A stretch of 16,983 bases of DNA. Source: a virus. The stretch is taken from positions 1 through 16,983 of the IMG/VR virus record IMGVR_UViG_3300045988_117943, one strand, 5' to 3'. Below the pieces are notes generated by a model, which made no database searches, had not been told where the DNA came from, and worked only from the letters and a program-made list of their open reading frames with translations. Shown piece by piece: positions 457-16,983 of this stretch. The position numbers and the translations under genes were made by a program. Numbering within the stretch: position 1 is the first letter of the stretch; each line of letters begins with the position of its first letter.

Positions 457-1038
457 ATGAATAAATGGATTGAAGTTTATATGCAAGAACATGATTTGAA
501 GCCGAATGAGCATTTCAAAATTATTTCCGAGCAAGATAATCATGAATATTATTTTAGCGAAAACGGTCAACTATGTAGATGCTCAAATACTGGATATAAC
601 TATGTAAACTATAAACTTTGGGGCAAAGTCATGTCAGGAGTTGTAATCGAAAAAGTAAAACCAAAAGGAAGATATATACCGAAGAAAGGGGAACTTTATT
701 TTTTTGTTGGTATGTACGGAGGAATTATCGCAAATGTATATGATTCTGAACAAGATGAATTTGTAATCAAACATAATTTAGTATTCAGAACTGAAGAAGA
801 AGCCGAAGATTACAAGTGGTTTTTAGATCAAGTAGATAAGTATAAAAAAGAGTTTGTTACTAGGCAACCTAATTATAGATTATGTTTTGATTTTGAATAT
901 AACAAATTATTCTTGACTAAAAATGATCGCATTAAACACCATAAAGATTATTTTGGAAATATAGGAAACATTAAAGAATTCTGTGAAGTCGTAGGTGATG
1001 ATCGTATTAAGAAGTATATGTTTGGAGTGTATGAATAA
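457..1038 (+). CDS. Hypothetical early protein (193 aa)
   Basis: First long ORF downstream of the consensus promoter. ATG start with a weak SD (AAGAAAG). No recognisable motif. Confidence 0.75.
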   Translation: MNKWIEVYMQEHDLKPNEHFKIISEQDNHEYYFSENGQLCRCSNTGYNYVNYKLWGKVMSGVVIEKVKPKGRYIPKKGELYFFVGMYGGIIANVYDSEQDEFVIKHNLVFRTEEEAEDYKWFLDQVDKYKKEFVTRQPNYRLCFDFEYNKLFLTKNDRIKHHKDYFGNIGNIKEFCEVVGDDRIKKYMFGVYE

Positions 1039-2521: not shown

Positions 2522-2551
2522 AGGGTGTCAATAATGACACCCTTTCTTTTT
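2522..2551 (+). terminator. Rho-independent terminator after the SSB gene
   Basis: A 9-bp stem, AGGGTGTCA (2522-2530) with TGACACCCT (2535-2543), a 4-nt loop, then TTCTTTTTT. Confidence 0.8.
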
Positions 2552-2574
2552 AGGCGTTGAAAGGATGTGTGAAA

Positions 2575-3348
2575 ATGGCAATAAGAAGAAGTTACAAAGA
2601 CCAAGTGGCATTTAGAAATTTAAATGCCAGTATTAAAAGAACCGTAACAAAAGCAAAAAATATGGGTGTTGATATTGAATTTACTACACGAAATTACATG
2701 AGTTTTCGTACCCGTGAAGAACTAAATAAATATAAAAGACAGGCAGAACGATTTATTTTAAATAATCAATATTACAAAAATGACAGAAACGTAGTTTTCA
2801 ACAGAAAAGATATACGTATGGCAAATAAATTGATTGACAAACAGAACAGACAAAAACGAAAGTTAGCAAACAAAATAGGTGACTTGCCACAGACGGTGGG
2901 CGGTATTGCACAAGATATCACAGTTAGACGAGCGACAGGGTTAGTTTTAGATGATAAAAGTTCTTTATTTACAGACATAAAACACGTAAACATTGACAGT
3001 TATTCTTCTAAAAAACAGTTGGAAGATAGAATCAAAACACTAAAAAGAAATACAAAAAATCCAATGAAAAAGCAAGAATTGTTACAGAACAATTATATTA
3101 AAGCCTTAAGAAAACAAAAGAAAAAAGGCAATTTGACGTCAAAGCAGTTTCGAGAAATGTCGAAAAACATAAAGGGTATGAGCGTTTCTCAATTCACAAC
3201 GTGGTTTTATCAAGAGCAATCAAGTTTGGATACTTTCAGATATGAAGAACTAGGAATTGGAGATAATAATAAAACCTTAGAATTACGTCAAATACAAACG
3301 TCACTAAATAAATTTAAGAATCAAAATGGCAAGAAAAAGAAAAAATGA
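2575..3348 (+). CDS. Terminal protein (protein primer for DNA replication), phi29 p3-like (257 aa from ATG 2575)
   Basis: The ORF opens at TTG 2557, but ATG 2575 has SD AAAGGA 10 nt upstream. The protein is basic, ~260 aa, and overlaps the DNAP start. The N-terminal third aligns with my recollection of phi29 TP: K.K..RT..K..GVD.....SF.TR...NK.K.QA..F. Confidence 0.8.
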   Translation: MAIRRSYKDQVAFRNLNASIKRTVTKAKNMGVDIEFTTRNYMSFRTREELNKYKRQAERFILNNQYYKNDRNVVFNRKDIRMANKLIDKQNRQKRKLANKIGDLPQTVGGIAQDITVRRATGLVLDDKSSLFTDIKHVNIDSYSSKKQLEDRIKTLKRNTKNPMKKQELLQNNYIKALRKQKKKGNLTSKQFREMSKNIKGMSVSQFTTWFYQEQSSLDTFRYEELGIGDNNKTLELRQIQTSLNKFKNQNGKKKKK

Positions 3349-5146
3349 AGTTTGGAGTTGTGACTTTGAAACTACAACAGACCCGAACGACTGTCGGGTC
3401 TGGGCATGGGGAGCAAGTAATGTATTTGATGTTGATAAGAAATTCTACGGAAACACAATGAAAAGTTTTGTCGATTGGATTTCCAATCAGAATAAAAAGC
3501 TATATTTTCATAATTTAGCCTTTGACGGGGAATTCATTGTATCGTGGCTTTTATCCAATGGATTTGAATATACAGACAGACCAAAAACAAACAGTTTTAA
3601 AACTATCATATCTAAACAGGGGCTTTGGTATTGCATAGAAATCTATTGGAGTGTAAAGGGAAAGCACACAACAAAAACAGTGATTTGGGATAGTTTGAAA
3701 TTGATACCGTTTAGCGTGGAGCAGATTGCGATTGACTTTAAATTACCAATACGAAAATTGAAAATCGATTATGACGAGTACAGGGAAATTGGTCATGAAC
3801 TCACAATAGAAGAAAAAGACTATCTCTTCAATGATATCGACATTATAGCTATGGCATTGCAACAGTGCTTTAATGAGGGTTTTGATAAAATGACCGCAAC
3901 CGCAAGCAGTTTTAAAGCCTTTAAAGAAACACTGCCGGATGACTTTGAAAAAATATTTCCTGTCATTTCAATAGAAACGGATAAAGATATAAGGCCTAGT
4001 TATATGGGTGGATTTGTTTGGGCAAACGAACGATTTAAAGAAAAAGTAATAAATGAGGGCATTGTGTTTGACGTAAATAGTCTATATCCTAGCCGGATGT
4101 ATACAGAACTCTTGCCCTATGGTGCGCCTGTATTTTTTACAGGAGATCCACAAAAAACAGAATTGTACCCGTTATGGATTTGTAAAGTTTCCTTTGGCTT
4201 TGAATTAAAAGAAGAACACATAGAGTGTATCAGTTTAGACCGGTTTAGCATTATGTTTGGAAGCAAAAAATACGTGAAGTCAAGTGACGGTGATGTTGTG
4301 ACTATGGTATTGACTAACGTGGATTGGGAACTCATAAATGAACAGTATGATGTGTATGATGTGAATTGGTACAGTGGCTATAAATTTAAAGGTGTTGTGG
4401 GAATTGCCAACAAATTTATTGACGAGTGCATGGAAGTAAAAAAGAAAGAGCATGGAGTGAAACGGTTTATCGCTAAAAGAAAAATGAATAGTGTCTATGG
4501 TAAGTTTGCAACCAACCCCGATGTTACACCTAAAATACCGTATTTGGATGATAGCGGAGTTCTAAAAACAAAAATACCGACCTATACCACTTACGAAAAT
4601 GGAAGAGTGCAGGAAGTCGAAGACAAACAGGAACGTGACCCTATTTACTTGCCCTATGGTGCGTTTGTTACTGCCTATGCTAGAAAGTACACAATAAGCA
4701 CCGCACAAAAAGTAGGTATTGACAGGGTGGCTTATATCGATACGGATTCTATACACCTTATAGGAACAGAAACACCGAAAGCGATTGAGGATATTATTGA
4801 CGATAAAGAACTAGGCTATTGGGGTCTTGAAAGTGTATTTAAAAGAGCTTACTTTATCGGGGCGAAAGCCTATATTGAAGAAATTGAAATCAGCTATAAA
4901 GATTACAGTGACCACCAAAAAGAATATATTTTTGACCACGATAAAAAAGACAATCTATATTATATGCGTGACGGGGTTTGCTATCGGTTAAACGTAAAAT
5001 GCGCCGGCATGACAGAAAAAGCGAAACAGAATATAACCTTTAATAATTTCCGAGTTGGCAATGAAGTGCCCGACTGTTTGAAAAAAGCACACGTGAAAGG
5101 GGGTGTTGTATTATATGACAGAAAATTCAAAATCAAACGAAGATAA
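3326..5146 (+). CDS. Family-B protein-primed DNA polymerase (606 aa)
   Basis: Exo I is SCDFETTT, Exo II is HNLAFDGEF, Exo III is YLFNDIDI. Motif A is DVNSLYPS, motif B is KRKMNSVYGKFA, motif C is YIDTDSIH, and KxY is GAKAY. The N-terminus MARKRKNEVWSCDFETTT resembles that of phi29 DNAP. Confidence 0.97.
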   Translation: MARKRKNEVWSCDFETTTDPNDCRVWAWGASNVFDVDKKFYGNTMKSFVDWISNQNKKLYFHNLAFDGEFIVSWLLSNGFEYTDRPKTNSFKTIISKQGLWYCIEIYWSVKGKHTTKTVIWDSLKLIPFSVEQIAIDFKLPIRKLKIDYDEYREIGHELTIEEKDYLFNDIDIIAMALQQCFNEGFDKMTATASSFKAFKETLPDDFEKIFPVISIETDKDIRPSYMGGFVWANERFKEKVINEGIVFDVNSLYPSRMYTELLPYGAPVFFTGDPQKTELYPLWICKVSFGFELKEEHIECISLDRFSIMFGSKKYVKSSDGDVVTMVLTNVDWELINEQYDVYDVNWYSGYKFKGVVGIANKFIDECMEVKKKEHGVKRFIAKRKMNSVYGKFATNPDVTPKIPYLDDSGVLKTKIPTYTTYENGRVQEVEDKQERDPIYLPYGAFVTAYARKYTISTAQKVGIDRVAYIDTDSIHLIGTETPKAIEDIIDDKELGYWGLESVFKRAYFIGAKAYIEEIEISYKDYSDHQKEYIFDHDKKDNLYYMRDGVCYRLNVKCAGMTEKAKQNITFNNFRVGNEVPDCLKKAHVKGGVVLYDRKFKIKRR

Positions 5147-5327
5147 AAAGAAGAATTATGATTATATTAACAGACATCATAAAAGCAAGTATGAACGATT
5201 TACTGTTTTTGTACCGAAAAAAGAAAAAGCAGTTCGATTGTTTTTGAATACGAAACGAAGAAACAAACAATTAAAAGATTGGGTATGTGAAAAAGCGTTT
5301 GAGGATATTGAAAAAGAATTAAAATAG
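5115..5327 (+). CDS. Small basic protein, possible ribbon-helix-helix (Arc/CopG-like) DNA-binding regulator (70 aa)
   Basis: ATG 5115 follows a strong SD (AAAGGGGGTG). The pattern KKNYDYINRHHKSKYERFTVFVPKKEKAVRLFL resembles RHH proteins: a basic N-terminus, a beta-strand (RFTVFVP), then helices. This is pattern recognition only. Confidence 0.6.
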   Translation: MTENSKSNEDKKKNYDYINRHHKSKYERFTVFVPKKEKAVRLFLNTKRRNKQLKDWVCEKAFEDIEKELK

Positions 5328-5335
5328 TTTATAAT
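5308..5335 (+). promoter_or_regulatory. Near-consensus sigma-A promoter driving the intergenic RNA
   Basis: TTGAAA (5308-5313), 16 nt, TATAAT (5330-5335). It overlaps the end of the upstream CDS. The predicted start is about 5342. Confidence 0.6.
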
Positions 5336-5341
5336 AAAGAT

Positions 5342-5497
5342 ACAAGGTACATAAATGAAGTCTGTCTTTCGTTGGTGGGGTTCATTAGGCGTAAAATCCT
5401 CCTACCCGATTTAGAAGTAATGAATCTAGTATGACAGTTTATGCTACTTTGGCCATTTGATTTTAGAAAAAAGACGTTAAAAACGTCTTTTTTCTTT
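5342..5497 (+). ncRNA. Candidate structured ncRNA (~155 nt), pRNA-like three-way junction followed by a terminator hairpin
   Basis: A promoter-to-terminator unit with no SD-led ORF. Hand fold: helix A pairs 5343-5366 with 5433-5451 (18 bp, with a 6-nt and a 1-nt bulge). Hairpin 1 pairs 5374-5380 with 5400-5406 around a 19-nt loop. Hairpin 2 pairs 5411-5415 with 5425-5429 around a 9-nt loop. The two loops carry 7 nt of perfect complementarity: UUCAUUA (5381-5387) and UAAUGAA (5418-5424). Confidence 0.55.
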
Positions 5498-5498
5498 T
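5467..5498 (+). terminator. Rho-independent terminator ending the ncRNA unit
   Basis: AAAAAAGACGTT (5467-5478) and AACGTCTTTTTT (5482-5493) are perfect inverted repeats, followed by a T-rich tract. Confidence 0.8.
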
Positions 5499-5513
5499 CT
5501 TTGACTTAAAATA

Positions 5514-5522
5514 TGCTATTAT
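5514..5522 (+). promoter_or_regulatory. Candidate late promoter, extended -10 type (TGcTATTAT)
   Basis: The extended -10 box lies about 24 nt upstream of the scaffold ATG. The nearby TTGACT (5501-5506) is too close (13 nt) to TATAAT (5520-5525) to act as a normal -35. Confidence 0.35.
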
Positions 5523-5545
5523 AATAATAGGAAAGGTGTGATGAT

Positions 5546-5821
5546 ATGGAACGGGCGCAAATGGAACAACAGTTGTCACAGATTTTGGAGACCGACGACA
5601 GAGCAGAACGTTCTACAATGTTGGATGAAGTGCGAACAGAAACCAATGCATTATATGAACGGATTGACGAGCTTTCGAGCCAAGTTTCTAATTTACAAGA
5701 GCGAAATGGTTCGTTAGTTGAGGCAAACTCAAAATTGTTTATGCGTTTGGGTGTAGAGAATAAACCCGAACAAAAATCTGAAAGTAAAGGCTTAGATATT
5801 TCAAAAATGTTAAAAGATTAA
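5546..5821 (+). CDS. Scaffolding protein, phi29 gp7-like (91 aa)
   Basis: Acidic, heptad-rich helical protein of about 90 aa immediately upstream of the major capsid gene. SD GAAAGGTG. Confidence 0.6.
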   Translation: MERAQMEQQLSQILETDDRAERSTMLDEVRTETNALYERIDELSSQVSNLQERNGSLVEANSKLFMRLGVENKPEQKSESKGLDISKMLKD

Positions 5822-5835
5822 AGGAGTGATTAAAC

Positions 5836-7185
5836 ATGGCAAAAACAACAAAGGCGCAAGTATTGAGCGCCATTCAAGAATCAACAGGGGAAGACGTAAC
5901 CCCTACAAGCGTGGATGTTGCTCATGCAATGTACACAAGTGCTAGTCCTAACTTACGTAGTACTGTTGGAGATCCTTATGAAGTCAATTCCCTAGACTTT
6001 ATGGACGGGTTGTTACAGTACCCCGACACGTTAGCGACCGAATGGATTACGTTAGCAACAAGAATCGGACGTTCGATTGCACACAAGAATATTATTACCA
6101 ACAAGTTGGCACCATTTAAAACGGAAGATATGCCATTAGGCTACACTATGGAAGAATATTTTGTGGATGTTGCAAAAGAATATGAGTATAACCAAGAACA
6201 GGCTGAAACAAACCAGTTTAAACGTGAATTGCCGGACATTAAAAATGTTTTCTATATTGTCAACCGTAAATCCTATTATAAACAGACTATCACAGATGAT
6301 GACTTACGTTCTTATTTTGTAACATGGGATGGTGTGACATCTTTGATTGCACGTATTGTGGACGCTTTGTACAATGGTGACAATAAAGATGACTACAATT
6401 ACATGAAATCAGCTTTAGCTACGCATTACGAAAACGGGCATATGAAAATTGTGAAGCTGACGAGTCCTGTACAGGACGCCGACAGTGCAAAAGCGTTGGC
6501 ACAGAAGTTGACCGAATACGCAAGCTATTTGACAGAGCCAACATCTGAATATAATGCTATGGGTGTAACGAAACAGAATGAAATGGACGACCTGTATATT
6601 ATTTTAACCGGAAAATCCAATTCTTATCTTAACATTGAATGGTTAGCACAGACTTTCCAATTAGATGTCGCTAGTTTTAAAACCCATGTGTTAGTGATTC
6701 CGACATTGCCTAGCACAGAAAATGGAACAATCGAGGCTTTATTGGTAGATAGTGAAATCTATAGAGTATTTGATCAAAAGTATAACGTTACTACAAAATA
6801 CAATGCTGAGGGATTGTACTGGAACTATTGGTTGCACCATTGGGAATCTATCGCAACATCTCGATTTGCCAATGCGATTGCGTTTGTAAGTGGAATGGCA
6901 GAAGAAAAGGTTACTGCTATTGAAGTAAAACCACAGTCGGTCGTATTAAAAGCCAATCAGTCAACCAAAGTTGCTATTGACGTGACAAAGACAAGTGTTG
7001 ACGCAACCGAAAACATTACTGCTACGTCAAGTGCAAATAGTGAAGTTACCGCAACACTGAGTGATGACAAACGTAGTATGACAGTTAGTGCCACAGGAAG
7101 TGCCACACCCGGTCTTAAGACAATCACTGTCAAAGATTCTACTTCAAAAGTACAGGCTATCTTACAGGTAGTTATCACGGCATAA
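5836..7185 (+). CDS. Major capsid protein with a C-terminal bacterial Ig-like (Big_2-type) domain, phi29 gp8-like (449 aa)
   Basis: Size and position match phi29 gp8 (448 aa). The C-terminal ~90 aa (VTAIEVKPQSVVLKANQSTKV...TITVKDSTSKVQAILQVVI, nt ~6907-7182) has a Big_2-like strand pattern. Strong SD AAGGAGTGA. A terminator follows. Confidence 0.85.
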   Translation: MAKTTKAQVLSAIQESTGEDVTPTSVDVAHAMYTSASPNLRSTVGDPYEVNSLDFMDGLLQYPDTLATEWITLATRIGRSIAHKNIITNKLAPFKTEDMPLGYTMEEYFVDVAKEYEYNQEQAETNQFKRELPDIKNVFYIVNRKSYYKQTITDDDLRSYFVTWDGVTSLIARIVDALYNGDNKDDYNYMKSALATHYENGHMKIVKLTSPVQDADSAKALAQKLTEYASYLTEPTSEYNAMGVTKQNEMDDLYIILTGKSNSYLNIEWLAQTFQLDVASFKTHVLVIPTLPSTENGTIEALLVDSEIYRVFDQKYNVTTKYNAEGLYWNYWLHHWESIATSRFANAIAFVSGMAEEKVTAIEVKPQSVVLKANQSTKVAIDVTKTSVDATENITATSSANSEVTATLSDDKRSMTVSATGSATPGLKTITVKDSTSKVQAILQVVITA

Positions 7186-13361: not shown

Positions 13362-14285
13362 ATGTCACAAAAAAGAAGTTTATTTGGTTATTCTAAAAGT
13401 CCTACAGACTATGCACAAATGGAAACATTTGAAACGGAAAACATATATCAAAGCTATTTACTACAAATAGCTTTGAATATGTTCCAATATGAAAATCTAC
13501 CAGAAAGCATTGACGAATTTTATTTAGAATATATTTTACAAACAAGAGGATTCTTGATTATTGTAAATGATGATATTTTCGGTTTGACCGCTTTGGAGTG
13601 TGCTATGGGCGGACGAATCAATCACTATTATCTTCCTATTAGTTTTAGAGGGGTTGACCCAACAGGAGAACTCACGAAAAACTATTCTTTGGATGAAGTT
13701 GTTCTATGTAAGAACAGTCCGCTTTTTGTTGGAACGATTCCTTTTATAAACTATTATGCGCGTGAACTTTCCCTATGTTCAAGAACTATTGACGTAAACT
13801 TAGACGCTCAATGGACACCGTATATCATTGCAGGTGACAAGCGCATGAAATCCATGTTTCAGAATTTTATAGACCAAGTAAGAAAAGGTGTGAAAACTAT
13901 ATTCACATGGTCAAACTTTGATTTAAATAGTATAAACGTTTTGCCGACACAGGCACCGTGGGTAGCGGAATCTGTCAACGTTTTAAAGCAATCTATTCTT
14001 AGAGAATGTATGACTGTTCTAGGAATTGACAATGCCAACCAAGATAAAAAGGAACGTGTGCAAAGTGCAGAAGTAAACGCGAACAATACACAAATCATTG
14101 CGTCACGCAATATTTGGCTTTCCGAACGAGAAAAGTTTGTGAAAAAGCTGAATGAAAAATATGGAACGAATGTGAAAGTATCATTTAGAGCCTATAACGA
14201 TATTTTGGATATGATTGAAGTAAACAACAATTCTATTGATTTAGACATTTCAAAAGGCGGTGAAGAAAATGCAAACGATGAGTAA
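13362..14285 (+). CDS. Portal / head-tail connector (upper collar), phi29 gp10-like (307 aa)
   Basis: YENLPESID vs WENLPPTIN, GIDNANQDKKERVQSAEVNANNTQI vs [25 protein letters not shown], and KLNEKYGTNVKVSFR vs KINELYGLNVKVKFR, compared with phi29 gp10 (309 aa, as recalled). Confidence 0.93.
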   Translation: MSQKRSLFGYSKSPTDYAQMETFETENIYQSYLLQIALNMFQYENLPESIDEFYLEYILQTRGFLIIVNDDIFGLTALECAMGGRINHYYLPISFRGVDPTGELTKNYSLDEVVLCKNSPLFVGTIPFINYYARELSLCSRTIDVNLDAQWTPYIIAGDKRMKSMFQNFIDQVRKGVKTIFTWSNFDLNSINVLPTQAPWVAESVNVLKQSILRECMTVLGIDNANQDKKERVQSAEVNANNTQIIASRNIWLSEREKFVKKLNEKYGTNVKVSFRAYNDILDMIEVNNNSIDLDISKGGEENANDE

Positions 14286-14967: not shown

Positions 14968-15744
14968 ATGGGAAAAAGCTATCAAGAATTTAAAAATATG
15001 GTATTGAATAATGGCTATGATTTAGATGGAGCATATGGCGCTCAGTGTTGGGATGGGTATGCTAAGTATGCACAGTATTTAGGTCAAACCGTTTGTCGAT
15101 GTTCTTTGACGGGATATGTTGGAGATATTTATACCTTGCGAAATTCAAACGGTATCTTAAATTATAACTCTTTACAGTATGTGCTCAAAAAAGGCGATAT
15201 CGTAACCTTTCAAAAAAGCTATTATACACCTTATACACATATTGCAATATATGACGGAGATTGTGGCAATGGCTATGGATATTTTCTAGGACAAAACCAA
15301 GGCGGAAAAGCCTATCCAACAGGTGGCGCAAATTTTAACATAGTTAAACTACCCTATAGCATTACAGATTATTATGCATTTAGACCGAATGTGCTGAATG
15401 AGCATAGCGAAAGTGGATTGAATCAATATGGATGTGATGATATCTTACACGTAGGGTCACACGTGTCTAGTAAACCAATGAAAATCGGAAACCAAGGATT
15501 GAAAAATATTAGTGGTGATATGTGTTGCTATCTCGAAGAACTAGGCGGATGGTATCCTATCTCACAAGTTAGTGAATATGATGCAAGCGACGGTAACAAA
15601 GACAATTATTTGGCGAACACCAATGCGGTTGTTTATTTGGATGAAAAGATTGTGACAGAATTGGACGTGACTAAAAATCGTGTGAAATTAAACAATGGAA
15701 TATGGGTCAACGCTACACCGCTCATTGAGGTAGTAGATGCCTAA
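14968..15744 (+). CDS. Endolysin: N-terminal CHAP amidase/endopeptidase plus C-terminal SH3-like cell-wall-binding domain (258 aa)
   Basis: ATG 14968 follows SD AAGGAG at 8 nt; the track start at 14959 is a GTG inside the SD. The CHAP catalytic signatures are GAQCWDG (Cys) and YTHIAIYDG (His). The C-terminal ~100 aa are beta-rich and SH3b-like. Confidence 0.85.
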   Translation: MGKSYQEFKNMVLNNGYDLDGAYGAQCWDGYAKYAQYLGQTVCRCSLTGYVGDIYTLRNSNGILNYNSLQYVLKKGDIVTFQKSYYTPYTHIAIYDGDCGNGYGYFLGQNQGGKAYPTGGANFNIVKLPYSITDYYAFRPNVLNEHSESGLNQYGCDDILHVGSHVSSKPMKIGNQGLKNISGDMCCYLEELGGWYPISQVSEYDASDGNKDNYLANTNAVVYLDEKIVTELDVTKNRVKLNNGIWVNATPLIEVVDA

Positions 15745-16753
15745 AAAATTCAAATGGTATGACCCCGCCCGTGCGAAGTCTTATGACAAATTTCTAAACT
15801 TTATTTTAGGTGGTCGTGGTATCGGTAAAACTTATGGGTTTAAAAAAGATGCAATTAAAAGGTTCAAGACAAAAGGAGAGCAGTTCTTTTATATAAAAAG
15901 ACATAAAACAGATATGCAAAACATAGATACGTTCTTGAATGATATGATTGAGAATTTTCCAAAAGATAAATTTAAAATAAGTGCTGGAAAGAAATTTACA
16001 AGATTTTATATAAATGGATTGGAAATGGGATATGCCATGCCGTTGAGTTTGTATGCGAACCTAAAGTCAAGTTCCTTTAATAAAGTAACCACGATTATTT
16101 TTGATGAGTTTCTACCGGAAAAAGGCGGGTATAATATGTACATTCCTAATGAGGTGGAAATCTTCTTGAATATGGTGGACTCAATCTTTAGACAACGGAA
16201 CGGGCACGTTTATTTATTGGCAAACAAAACGTCTATCAGTTCCCCTTACTTTAGTTATTTCAATATTACAGTAAACGCAAACAAGGAGTTTAACACATTC
16301 AATTTTAATGATTCAGTAAAACAAATACTAATTCAAAACTGCGGAGATGATTATTCTAAAGGTGACGGAGAAAAGTCACGCTTTCAAACTTTGATACAAG
16401 GCACACGTTATGGAGATTATAACAGTGGCGAGTTCGCCTATGATACAAATGATTTTATAGCCAAAAAGGAAAAAACCGCGAGATATTTTGCAACGCTTTA
16501 CCTAGACGGATTCTATTATGGTGTGTATATCGATACAATGTTAGGTAAATTTTATATTGACAAGGATGTGAATATGGAATATCCATATAAATATGCGATT
16601 GGAAACAATCGTTGTGAGAATATGATTCTTGCGAAAGAATGGCGCAAGGATTATAAACTGAGCGCTATTGTACGTAACTTTAGAGCGGGTAACATTTGGT
16701 TCAGTAATGCACAAGTTAAAACTGACATGACGTATATATTATCAAAATTCTAA
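15737..16753 (+). CDS. DNA encapsidation (packaging) ATPase, phi29 gp16-like (338 aa)
   Basis: Walker A is ILGGRGIGKTY (compare phi29 gp16 GARGIGKSY). Walker B is TTIIFDEF. It is the right-terminal gene, as in phi29. The last four codons and the stop lie inside the right ITR. Confidence 0.92.
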   Translation: MPKKFKWYDPARAKSYDKFLNFILGGRGIGKTYGFKKDAIKRFKTKGEQFFYIKRHKTDMQNIDTFLNDMIENFPKDKFKISAGKKFTRFYINGLEMGYAMPLSLYANLKSSSFNKVTTIIFDEFLPEKGGYNMYIPNEVEIFLNMVDSIFRQRNGHVYLLANKTSISSPYFSYFNITVNANKEFNTFNFNDSVKQILIQNCGDDYSKGDGEKSRFQTLIQGTRYGDYNSGEFAYDTNDFIAKKEKTARYFATLYLDGFYYGVYIDTMLGKFYIDKDVNMEYPYKYAIGNNRCENMILAKEWRKDYKLSAIVRNFRAGNIWFSNAQVKTDMTYILSKF

Positions 16754-16983
16754 CTTGCCATTCCCGTCTATTTATGCTATACTATTTATGTAATGAGTAG
16801 GTATTTCTTTTCATTCCCCCTCCCTTTCGCTGACCACTTCATGGCACGGTGGTTGGCAAGTACAGGACAGTGCGGTAAGGTACTGTGATGTGACGTGAGG
16901 TCACGTGAGTGACAGTGAGGTCGGTTGAGTTATGGTGAGTAGCTTGACCGGCCTTTTCTTGTGGGGAGAGATTGCGGGGCAAT
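16742..16983. repeat. Right inverted terminal repeat (242 bp)
   Basis: Exact reverse complement of 1..242 by hand comparison. Confidence 0.97.
16755..16783 (+). promoter_or_regulatory. Outward-facing (rightward) extended -10 promoter inside the right ITR
   Basis: TTGCCA (16755-16760), 17 nt, TGcTATACT (-10 hexamer 16778-16783). No ORF lies downstream. A run-off transcript would cover the terminal ~194 nt. Confidence 0.4.

Follow-up and report, generated by a model that had tools for sequence, protein, structure and literature searches.

A candidate prohead RNA gene in a phi29-like phage from the human gut, and covarying relatives in gut phage contigs

The window analyzed here is the whole 16,983-nucleotide stretch of the IMG/VR virus record IMGVR_UViG_3300045988_117943. 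The element in question, at positions 5342 to about 5498, is a gene for a predicted non-coding RNA of ~155 nt. From sequence comparison, we read it as a divergent prohead RNA (pRNA) gene, orthologous to the packaging RNA of the phi29 family, and put the probability of this reading at roughly 0.85. In phi29, pRNA forms a ring that assists the packing of DNA into the capsid. The two window ends form perfect 242-bp inverted terminal repeats (1-242 and 16742-16983). Hence, the window represents a protein-primed phage whose linear genome is complete at 16,983 bp. The terminal repeat of phi29 is only 6 bp long. The host is probably a human-gut bacterium of the Clostridia; a search of genome contigs with the capsid protein gave one locus, in a human-gut metagenome-assembled genome (MAG) labelled "Clostridia bacterium," which is weak host evidence.

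The RNA gene occupies a gap at 5328-5545. Upstream on the plus strand, the type-B DNA polymerase gene (3326-5146) is followed by an open reading frame (ORF) of 74 amino acids, the end of which is overlapped by the promoter of the RNA gene. Downstream, also on the plus strand, are the phi29-type scaffold gene (5546-5821) and the capsid gene (Phi29_MCP, 5836-7185). The gap between replication module and scaffold/capsid operon is thus where the original prediction had placed it. A profile search of the window proteins located a gp9 knob gene downstream of the capsid genes on the plus strand. The proposed phi29-type packaging partners were recovered by Pfam as well, namely a gp10-like connector (13362-14285, plus strand; Phage_connector, E = 3e-53) and a gp16-like packaging ATPase (15737-16753, plus strand; Podovirus_Gp16, E = 2.6e-62), together with the scaffold and Phi29_MCP proteins. 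In the Pfam search, the RNA gene therefore co-occurs with a gp10-type connector and a gp16-type ATPase in a genome without a small terminase. The connector is expected to be the docking partner of the RNA and the ATPase the partner of its end-closing helix A. In translation, the connector N terminus (MSQKRSLFGYSKS, MSQKRS...) is basic. For comparison, the phi29 connector starts with MARKRS, and this N terminus has been reported to bind pRNA.

The position of the gene had been thought to differ from phi29. In terms of gene order, it does not: in both phages, the gene closes the early operon after the polymerase and small ORF(s). Towards the left end, the early operon of phi29 has the order 6-5-4-3-2-1, pRNA, and the window has the order polymerase, small ORF, RNA, so the synteny of the polymerase module is the same. 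The orientation is different, as the early module of phi29 is opposite to the late genes, whereas in the window it is co-oriented with them. Hence, the RNA gene of the window is internal and not at a genome end. Inverted early regions are already known from the Bacillus phages Harambe and BeachBum (PMC6266182).

The RNA gene has a sigma-A-type promoter at 5308-5335 (plus strand; -35 TTGAAA, 16-nt spacer, -10 TATAAT) that agrees with the consensus at 11 of 12 positions. The RNA is predicted to start at A5342 or C5343. Between the -10 box and the first base of helix A are 7 nt, equal to the spacing at the phi29 promoter A1, and the same promoter is present in the related contigs L001, L083, L084, and L142. 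The 3' tail (5456-5500, plus strand) contains an intrinsic terminator, a 14-bp hairpin (5465-5495) followed by a T run; in a consensus scan, this hairpin was the sole terminator-like site within 4800-6000. Its counterpart in phi29 is the 3' domain of the 174-nt pRNA, which is dispensable. Both ends of the predicted promoter-to-terminator unit were thereby confirmed. At 5501-5545 (plus strand), outside the RNA, the scaffold/capsid operon has a separate promoter-like site and a ribosome-binding site. Positions 5342 to about 5498 form an independent unit without a conserved ORF, from which transcription is predicted.

With its place directly downstream of the early and directly upstream of the late operon, the RNA could instead regulate the scaffold/capsid operon in cis, as a leader or attenuator, or be the 3' untranslated region of the replication operon. 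However, it has its own near-consensus promoter and strong terminator, after which a second promoter-like site follows. Moreover, the homologue in the Hungatella phage CH17P1 lies between the polymerase and ATPase genes, and the related RNA of Bacillus phages lies at the genome end. As these positions differ, the RNA moves independently of the scaffold gene. We consider a leader or untranslated region highly unlikely.

Relatives of the window were gathered by their capsid protein, which gave 80 IMG/VR contigs (63-95% identity), 70 metagenome contigs (mostly titled "human gut metagenome"), and one MAG. The capsid protein is 33-35% identical to the major capsid proteins (MCPs) of Bacillus phi29-like phages. 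In 79/79 viral contigs that were long enough, a gap of 216-243 nt lies between an ORF of 61-74 amino acids and the scaffold gene. A blastn search with the locus found nothing similar in the phage collection and only near-identical copies among the 80 related loci. Hence, homologues were sought by synteny and covariance models (CMs). The gap sequences fall into three groups that are not linked by blastn: group W with the window, L001, L083, L142, and L084 (the window subgroup); group B with L002-5 and relatives; and group C with 74 or more sequences, including the divergent pair L029/L079. All three groups have a promoter, a core of 114-118 nt, and a terminator hairpin, which in the other groups is conserved structurally and not by sequence (CCCTC/GAGGG, CTCTC/GAGAG, GCCAC/GTGG). 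Overall, about 150 human-gut phage contigs have this non-coding RNA slot, with a conserved and covarying structure.

The RNA at 5342-5498 folds with -41 kcal/mol (z = -3.5), and 0/200 shuffled sequences folded as well. The structured core (5343-5451, about 110-115 nt) has its 5' and 3' ends closed by the long, interrupted helix A. In the outer 13 bp of this helix, the 5' strand (CAAGGUACAUAAA, 5343-5355, plus strand) pairs with UUUAUG-C-UACUUUG (5438-5451, plus strand), where C5444 is bulged. Among 5 relatives, 98.5% of the alignment cells are paired here, with one compensatory pair, and pair 5354/5439 is AU, GU, or GC across the window subgroup. After a 4-nt internal loop on the 5' strand, at a place comparable to the CCA bulge of phi29, distal helix A is formed by GUC (5360-5362, plus strand) and GAC (5433-5435). 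These pairs are 100% paired in the window subgroup, and 5362/5433 changes from CG to AU in L083. The helix A that had been drawn by hand was therefore right in its outer 13 bp and wrong in its inner part: the proposed pairing 5362-5366/5433-5437 was rejected, with 84% of cells paired in relatives and 4/5 pairs disrupted, versus 100% for 5360-5362/5433-5435.

Helix C consists of CG-UU-GGUGGG with a bulged UU (5370-5379, plus strand), paired with 5401-5408. All 8 pairs are 100% paired in the window subgroup, and 5370/5408 changes from CG to UA in L084. Between helices C and E, the left-side bulge UUCAUUA (5381-5387, plus strand) is the equivalent of the phi29 CE loop. The E hairpin (GGC-GUAAAA-UCC) follows at 5388-5399 (plus strand). 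The 19-nt loop formerly assigned to the first hairpin is thus really this 7-nt bulge plus a small hairpin with the loop GUAAAA. The second hairpin, D (5411-5429, plus strand), was found as predicted, with the correction that its loop has 11 nt (AAGUAAUGAAU) instead of 9 and is closed by a 4-bp stem (UUAG/CUAG; 5411-5414 with 5426-5429). The same D stem is found in group C. The three-way junction of a D arm and an arm with C helix, left bulge, and E hairpin is present, and its weakest element is the D stem (85-94% paired). For the whole model, 95.8% of cells are paired in the 5 sequences of the window subgroup, with 3 compensatory pairs.

The same architecture was obtained by RNAalifold for groups C and B and by the minimum free energy (MFE) fold of phi29 pRNA: an end-closing helix A, a multibranch junction, a C helix leading over a left bulge to a short E hairpin, and a D hairpin. 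Across the groups, helix A is 98.5-100% paired with compensatory changes, and a single base is bulged on its 3' strand (C5444 in the window, A in group B, and C109 in phi29 according to the Rfam consensus). The covariation check of the helices that had been suggested gave double changes far above those of controls with slid partners. In a hand model of the 74 group C sequences, 98.5% of cells are paired, and both sides have changed in 14 pairs; when the partners were slid by 1-3 columns, double changes occurred in 1-4 pairs, and the covariation was reached by 0/500 shuffles. The group C equivalent of helix C has compensatory changes in 4/6 pairs. In a cross-group CM-guided alignment, 93.5% of cells are paired and 33/38 pairs show double changes, compared with 11-16 in slid controls; as this alignment was fitted to the structure, the 93.5% and 33/38 are somewhat inflated. 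A match at L001:5766-5872 was recognized as a false CM match, and alignment A6, which contained it, was replaced by A7. The E loop is GUGAAA or GUAAAA (GURAAA) in every gut group, with GUGAAA in L084, groups B and C, CH17P1, and also the Bacillus phage DK1.

These alignments also bear on a small peptide gene as an explanation, as a 19-codon ORF (MKSVFRWWGSLGVKSSYPI, 5355-5414) does exist in the window, and its conservation had been named as an argument against an RNA gene. The ORF has no Shine-Dalgarno sequence and is not conserved in the relatives: its ATG is ATA in L084, and 1-nt deletions shift the frame in L142 and L084. An equivalent ORF is missing from groups B and C, where substitutions keep base pairs, not codons. 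With the start codon lost and the frame broken among relatives, the peptide gene was rejected, and we give it next to no credence.

The seven consecutive complementary loop bases that had been noted are present. The D loop bases 5418-5424 (UAAUGAA) are fully complementary to the bulge UUCAUUA at 5381-5387 over 7 bp, a length which shuffled loops reach in 1.1% of trials. The other sequence types have other pairs of CE bulge and D loop: UGCAU and AUGCA in L002 (5 bp), GUAU and AUAC in L004 and L138 (4 bp), UUACU and AGUAA in group C (5 bp), and UUUUC and GAAAA in L029 and L079 (5 bp). In a cross-matrix of these five types, the own D loop is the best or tied match for each bulge, and in the CM alignment, the paired bulge and D loop positions occupy the same columns in all groups. 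Compensatory changes between the loops are found in 3/5 pairs within group C and as CG to UA within group B. The loop covariation check thus came out positive across lineages and within groups B and C, and negative in the window subgroup. Judged from these alignments, the bulge and the D loop co-evolve and stay complementary. CE and D loops which change but remain complementary are known behaviour of pRNAs (PMC5066667).

Whether the loops pair in cis or in trans cannot be told from sequence, and we infer the intermolecular ring by homology. An RNA of the same shape might act as a monomer, with the bulge and D loop forming an intramolecular pseudoknot and a role outside a ring, e.g., in regulating the early-to-late switch. 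Besides this blindness of sequence analysis to cis and trans pairing, the gene's place exactly at the early/late boundary and a complementarity longer than in phi29 (7 bp vs. 4) would fit a monomer. However, the architecture and arm lengths match those of pRNAs, and a covariance model of the gut RNAs (R2, below) links the family to Bacillus pRNAs, whose pairing is intermolecular (PMC5066667). No complementarity to a target RNA was noticed either, though none was searched for. We regard a monomeric role as improbable.

We built two CMs. Model R1 was made from group C alone. It recovers group B with exact coordinates (E = 4e-4 to 0.01), L084 with 30.5 bits, and CH17P1 with 24.4 bits (E = 0.005). 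Its best match in the whole window on both strands is 5340-5455 on the plus strand, end to end, with 21.1 bits (E = 0.013). With default filters, R1 missed the window, and the match was recovered only with the filters off. Model R2 was made from 15 gut RNAs that represent all groups, without any Bacillus sequence. Its top matches in four Bacillus-type phages are all on the minus strand: B103 at 172-291 (25.9 bits, E = 0.011), DK1 at 615-730 in an unannotated left-end gap (38.4 bits, E = 3e-5), Bfsp1 at 624-744 (19.9 bits, E = 0.18), and PumA1 at 102-198 (18.9 bits, E = 0.29). All four sites are at the left genome end on the early strand. The Rfam pRNA model RF00044 supports two of them, B103 (172-287, 50.2 bits) and Bfsp1 (625-741, 44.4 bits, E = 1.5e-6), below its own gathering score of 100, whereas phi29 reaches 145 bits. 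Hence, RF00044 describes the phi29 subgroup and not the whole class, and standard annotation with this model will miss most pRNAs outside the phi29/PZA subgroup. On these CM scores, the gut RNA family is statistically linked to the pRNAs of Bacillus phages. R1 and R2 gave no match in the first 1 kb of GA-1 (where the pRNA is probably elsewhere), in the Enterococcus phage vB_EfaP_2/Chl-5, or in the C. perfringens phage phiCPV4.

Several results weigh against a pRNA gene. The suggested cmsearch with RF00044 was negative, with no window match at the gathering score and no match at E <= 10 on the locus, L006, or CH17P1; the Rfam search of these three at E <= 10 returned only chance-level small RNA and terminator matches. 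This silence is weak evidence because the genuine B103 pRNA scores half the threshold. Neither R1 nor R2 matches phi29 itself, and the CM matches of the window are marginal, with E = 0.013 and roughly calibrated E-values. The loop-loop pairs are invariant in the window subgroup, without compensatory change, and L084 loses one (6 bp). The E helix of the window has just 2-3 bp and the D stem just 4 bp. Finally, the MFE fold of the window pairs the D loop sequence in cis with 5368-5374. This cis pairing was rejected as the main structure; in relatives, it is less conserved than the three-way junction and shows no compensatory change. It is possible as an alternative conformer. The sequence at 5368-5374 (UUCGUUG), just upstream of the CE bulge, is a near-copy of the bulge sequence UUCAUUA (5381-5387).

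A pRNA-like shape could also have arisen by convergence, without common ancestry with Bacillus pRNAs. This would be in line with RF00044 not detecting the window RNA, R2 not detecting phi29, and the low sequence identity to phi29 outside the helix A ends. Yet the known pRNAs themselves have only 12% sequence similarity (PMC5066667), and R2, although free of Bacillus sequences, gives end-to-end matches at the four pRNA sites. Features in common are the helix base AAGG/CUUU, the bulge on the 3' strand, the GUGAAA E loop (DK1), and the synteny of polymerase, small ORF, and RNA. Convergence thus appears very improbable to us. The original interpretation as pRNA is supported by the packaging gene set, the conserved covarying structure, the complementary loops, and the CM match to Bacillus-type pRNA sites.

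The pRNA of phi29 and PZA (RF00044, "Phage_pRNA") resembles the window RNA in many respects. Both have their own sigma-A promoter and a 3' terminator domain, a core of about 115 nt, a helix A in which the 5' strand is bulged and one base bulges from the 3' strand, and a three-way junction with a C helix, CE loop, and E hairpin on one side, a D hairpin on the other, and complementary CE and D loops. Both genes close the early operon, behind the polymerase. Read directly, the helix A ends are 5' ACAAGGUAC...GCUACUUUG 3' in the window and UCAAUGGUAC...GCUACUUUGA in phi29. The ends are near-identical (CAA(U)GGUAC / GCUACUUUG), and the common helix base is A-U, A-U, G.U, G-C, U-A, A-U, bulged C, C-G. 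The AAGG/CUUU base with its G.U wobble is shared by the window, phi29, and B103 pRNAs. The differences are in the loops and the junction. The loop complementarity is 7 bp in the window (UUCAUUA/UAAUGAA) and 4 in phi29 (AACC/GGUU). The D hairpin has a 4-bp stem and an 11-nt loop in the window, but a 6-bp stem and a 5-nt loop in phi29. The E loop is GUAAAA versus UUGAGU, and the U-rich strand of the junction connects helices A and C in the window but C and D in phi29. The hosts differ, with a human-gut bacterium (probably Clostridia) for the window phage and Bacillus for phi29.

R2 aligns end to end with the pRNAs of group II (B103/M2/Nf) and the Cytobacillus phage Bfsp1 and with the predicted pRNAs of DK1, a B. 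cereus-group phage, and PumA1, a B. pumilus phage. The B103 pRNA starts with ACAAGGUGCA, like L001 and L084, and the E hairpin at the DK1 site (CACG-GUGAAA-CGUG) is identical to that of gut group C. Unlike the window RNA, the B103-type, Bfsp1, DK1, and PumA1 pRNAs are at the left genome end, on the strand opposite to the late genes, and have other kissing sequences. On CM scores, the pRNAs of B. cereus-group phages appear to be closer to the gut clade than to phi29. In DK1 (L161, NC_049967), the predicted pRNA at 615-730 (minus strand) lies in the gp01/gp02 gap, where RF00044 gives no match at E <= 0.01.

Further candidates were seen in other phages. The cultured Hungatella phage CH17P1 (L154, OP172758) carries the RNA homologue at 13682-13796 (plus strand); the gap there, 235 nt long and unannotated, is flanked by the genes for the polymerase and the packaging ATPase. 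The promoter of this homologue reads TTGACA-17-TAACAT and its E hairpin CGGG-GUGAAA-UCCG, and its CE bulge ACGCUA faces a D loop AUAGCA. The Enterococcus phage vB_EfaP_2/Chl-5 (L157, PV455607) has the order terminal protein, polymerase, small ORF, gap, scaffold, MCP. Its 267-nt gap (4572-4838) contains a promoter and a terminator, and by MFE it folds into a three-way junction like that of pRNA, including a left bulge and a hairpin of the sequence CACG-UGAAAUAU-CGUG; R2 does not match it, and the loop complementarity is only 3-4 nt. In the Clostridium phage CS229P2 (L153, OP172773), a 180-nt gap (5616-5795) reaches from the polymerase-operon terminator to the convergent packaging ATPase gene, with a weak R2 match on the minus strand at 5695-5832 (15 bits, E = 1.7). 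The human gut contig UEYI01001673 (L151) belongs to a distant phi29-like phage whose MCP is 25% identical. At 2549-2668 (plus strand), in the gap between polymerase and scaffold, it carries a GC-rich candidate with a UGG-GUGAAA-CCA hairpin, which is syntenic and statistically weak (R2, 15.9 bits, E = 0.62).

By homology with phi29 (PMC5066667, PMC8104870), we infer a role in DNA packaging for the window RNA. It would be made early, as its sigma-A promoter is strong. The part beyond the junction, which holds the CE and D loops, would bind the connector and the capsid vertex of the prohead, and the CE bulge of one molecule would pair with the D loop of the next, over 7 bp here, to close a ring. 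In phi29, from whose biology these steps are derived, the ring is pentameric. The free end of helix A, with the AAGG/CUUU base and the bulged C, would then recruit the gp16-like ATPase, which would translocate the terminal-protein-capped genome. Once packaging is done, the RNA would leave the particle.

In reviews, pRNA is described as unique to phi29 and related Bacillus phages (PMC5066667, PMC11476376). Outside Bacillus, a putative pRNA is on record for the Streptococcus phage Cp-1 (Martin et al. 1996, as cited in PMC6266182), which, like the window phage, is phi29-like with long inverted terminal repeats. The Lactococcus phage asccphi28 also resembles the window phage, in that it is phi29-like and encodes a terminal protein, a portal of the gp10 type, and a small ATPase. 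For asccphi28, however, "no evidence for a pRNA" was stated, its ATPase forms rings alone, and it was picked as a motor model for the absence of pRNA (PMC7823558). Hence, the presence of a pRNA cannot be assumed from the protein set alone. In a literature search of non-exhaustive coverage, no description of pRNAs from phages of the gut or of Clostridia turned up, and papers on C. perfringens podophages name pRNA only as the partner of gp16.

Motor studies have regarded pRNA as an oddity. The present finding widens the host range and the diversity of pRNA beyond Bacillus phages. We lean towards the view that pRNA is an ancestral and widespread part of the phi29-type motor of Firmicutes phages, including those of gut Clostridia (CH17P1) and probably Enterococcus, that the kissing loops diversified into orthogonal specificities of up to 7 bp, and that lineages such as asccphi28 lost the RNA secondarily. 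If true, the Rfam model is too narrow for annotating the pRNA family, and CH17P1 is a cultured phage of an anaerobe in which the pRNA question could be tested. RNA nanotechnology, which makes heavy use of the pRNA scaffold, would gain new three-way junctions and at least five natural kissing-loop pairs that are orthogonal to each other. The RNA component of the motor would then predate the split of the Bacillus and gut lineages, which would bear on the debate of whether pRNA is a relic or took the place of a terminase domain at a late stage.

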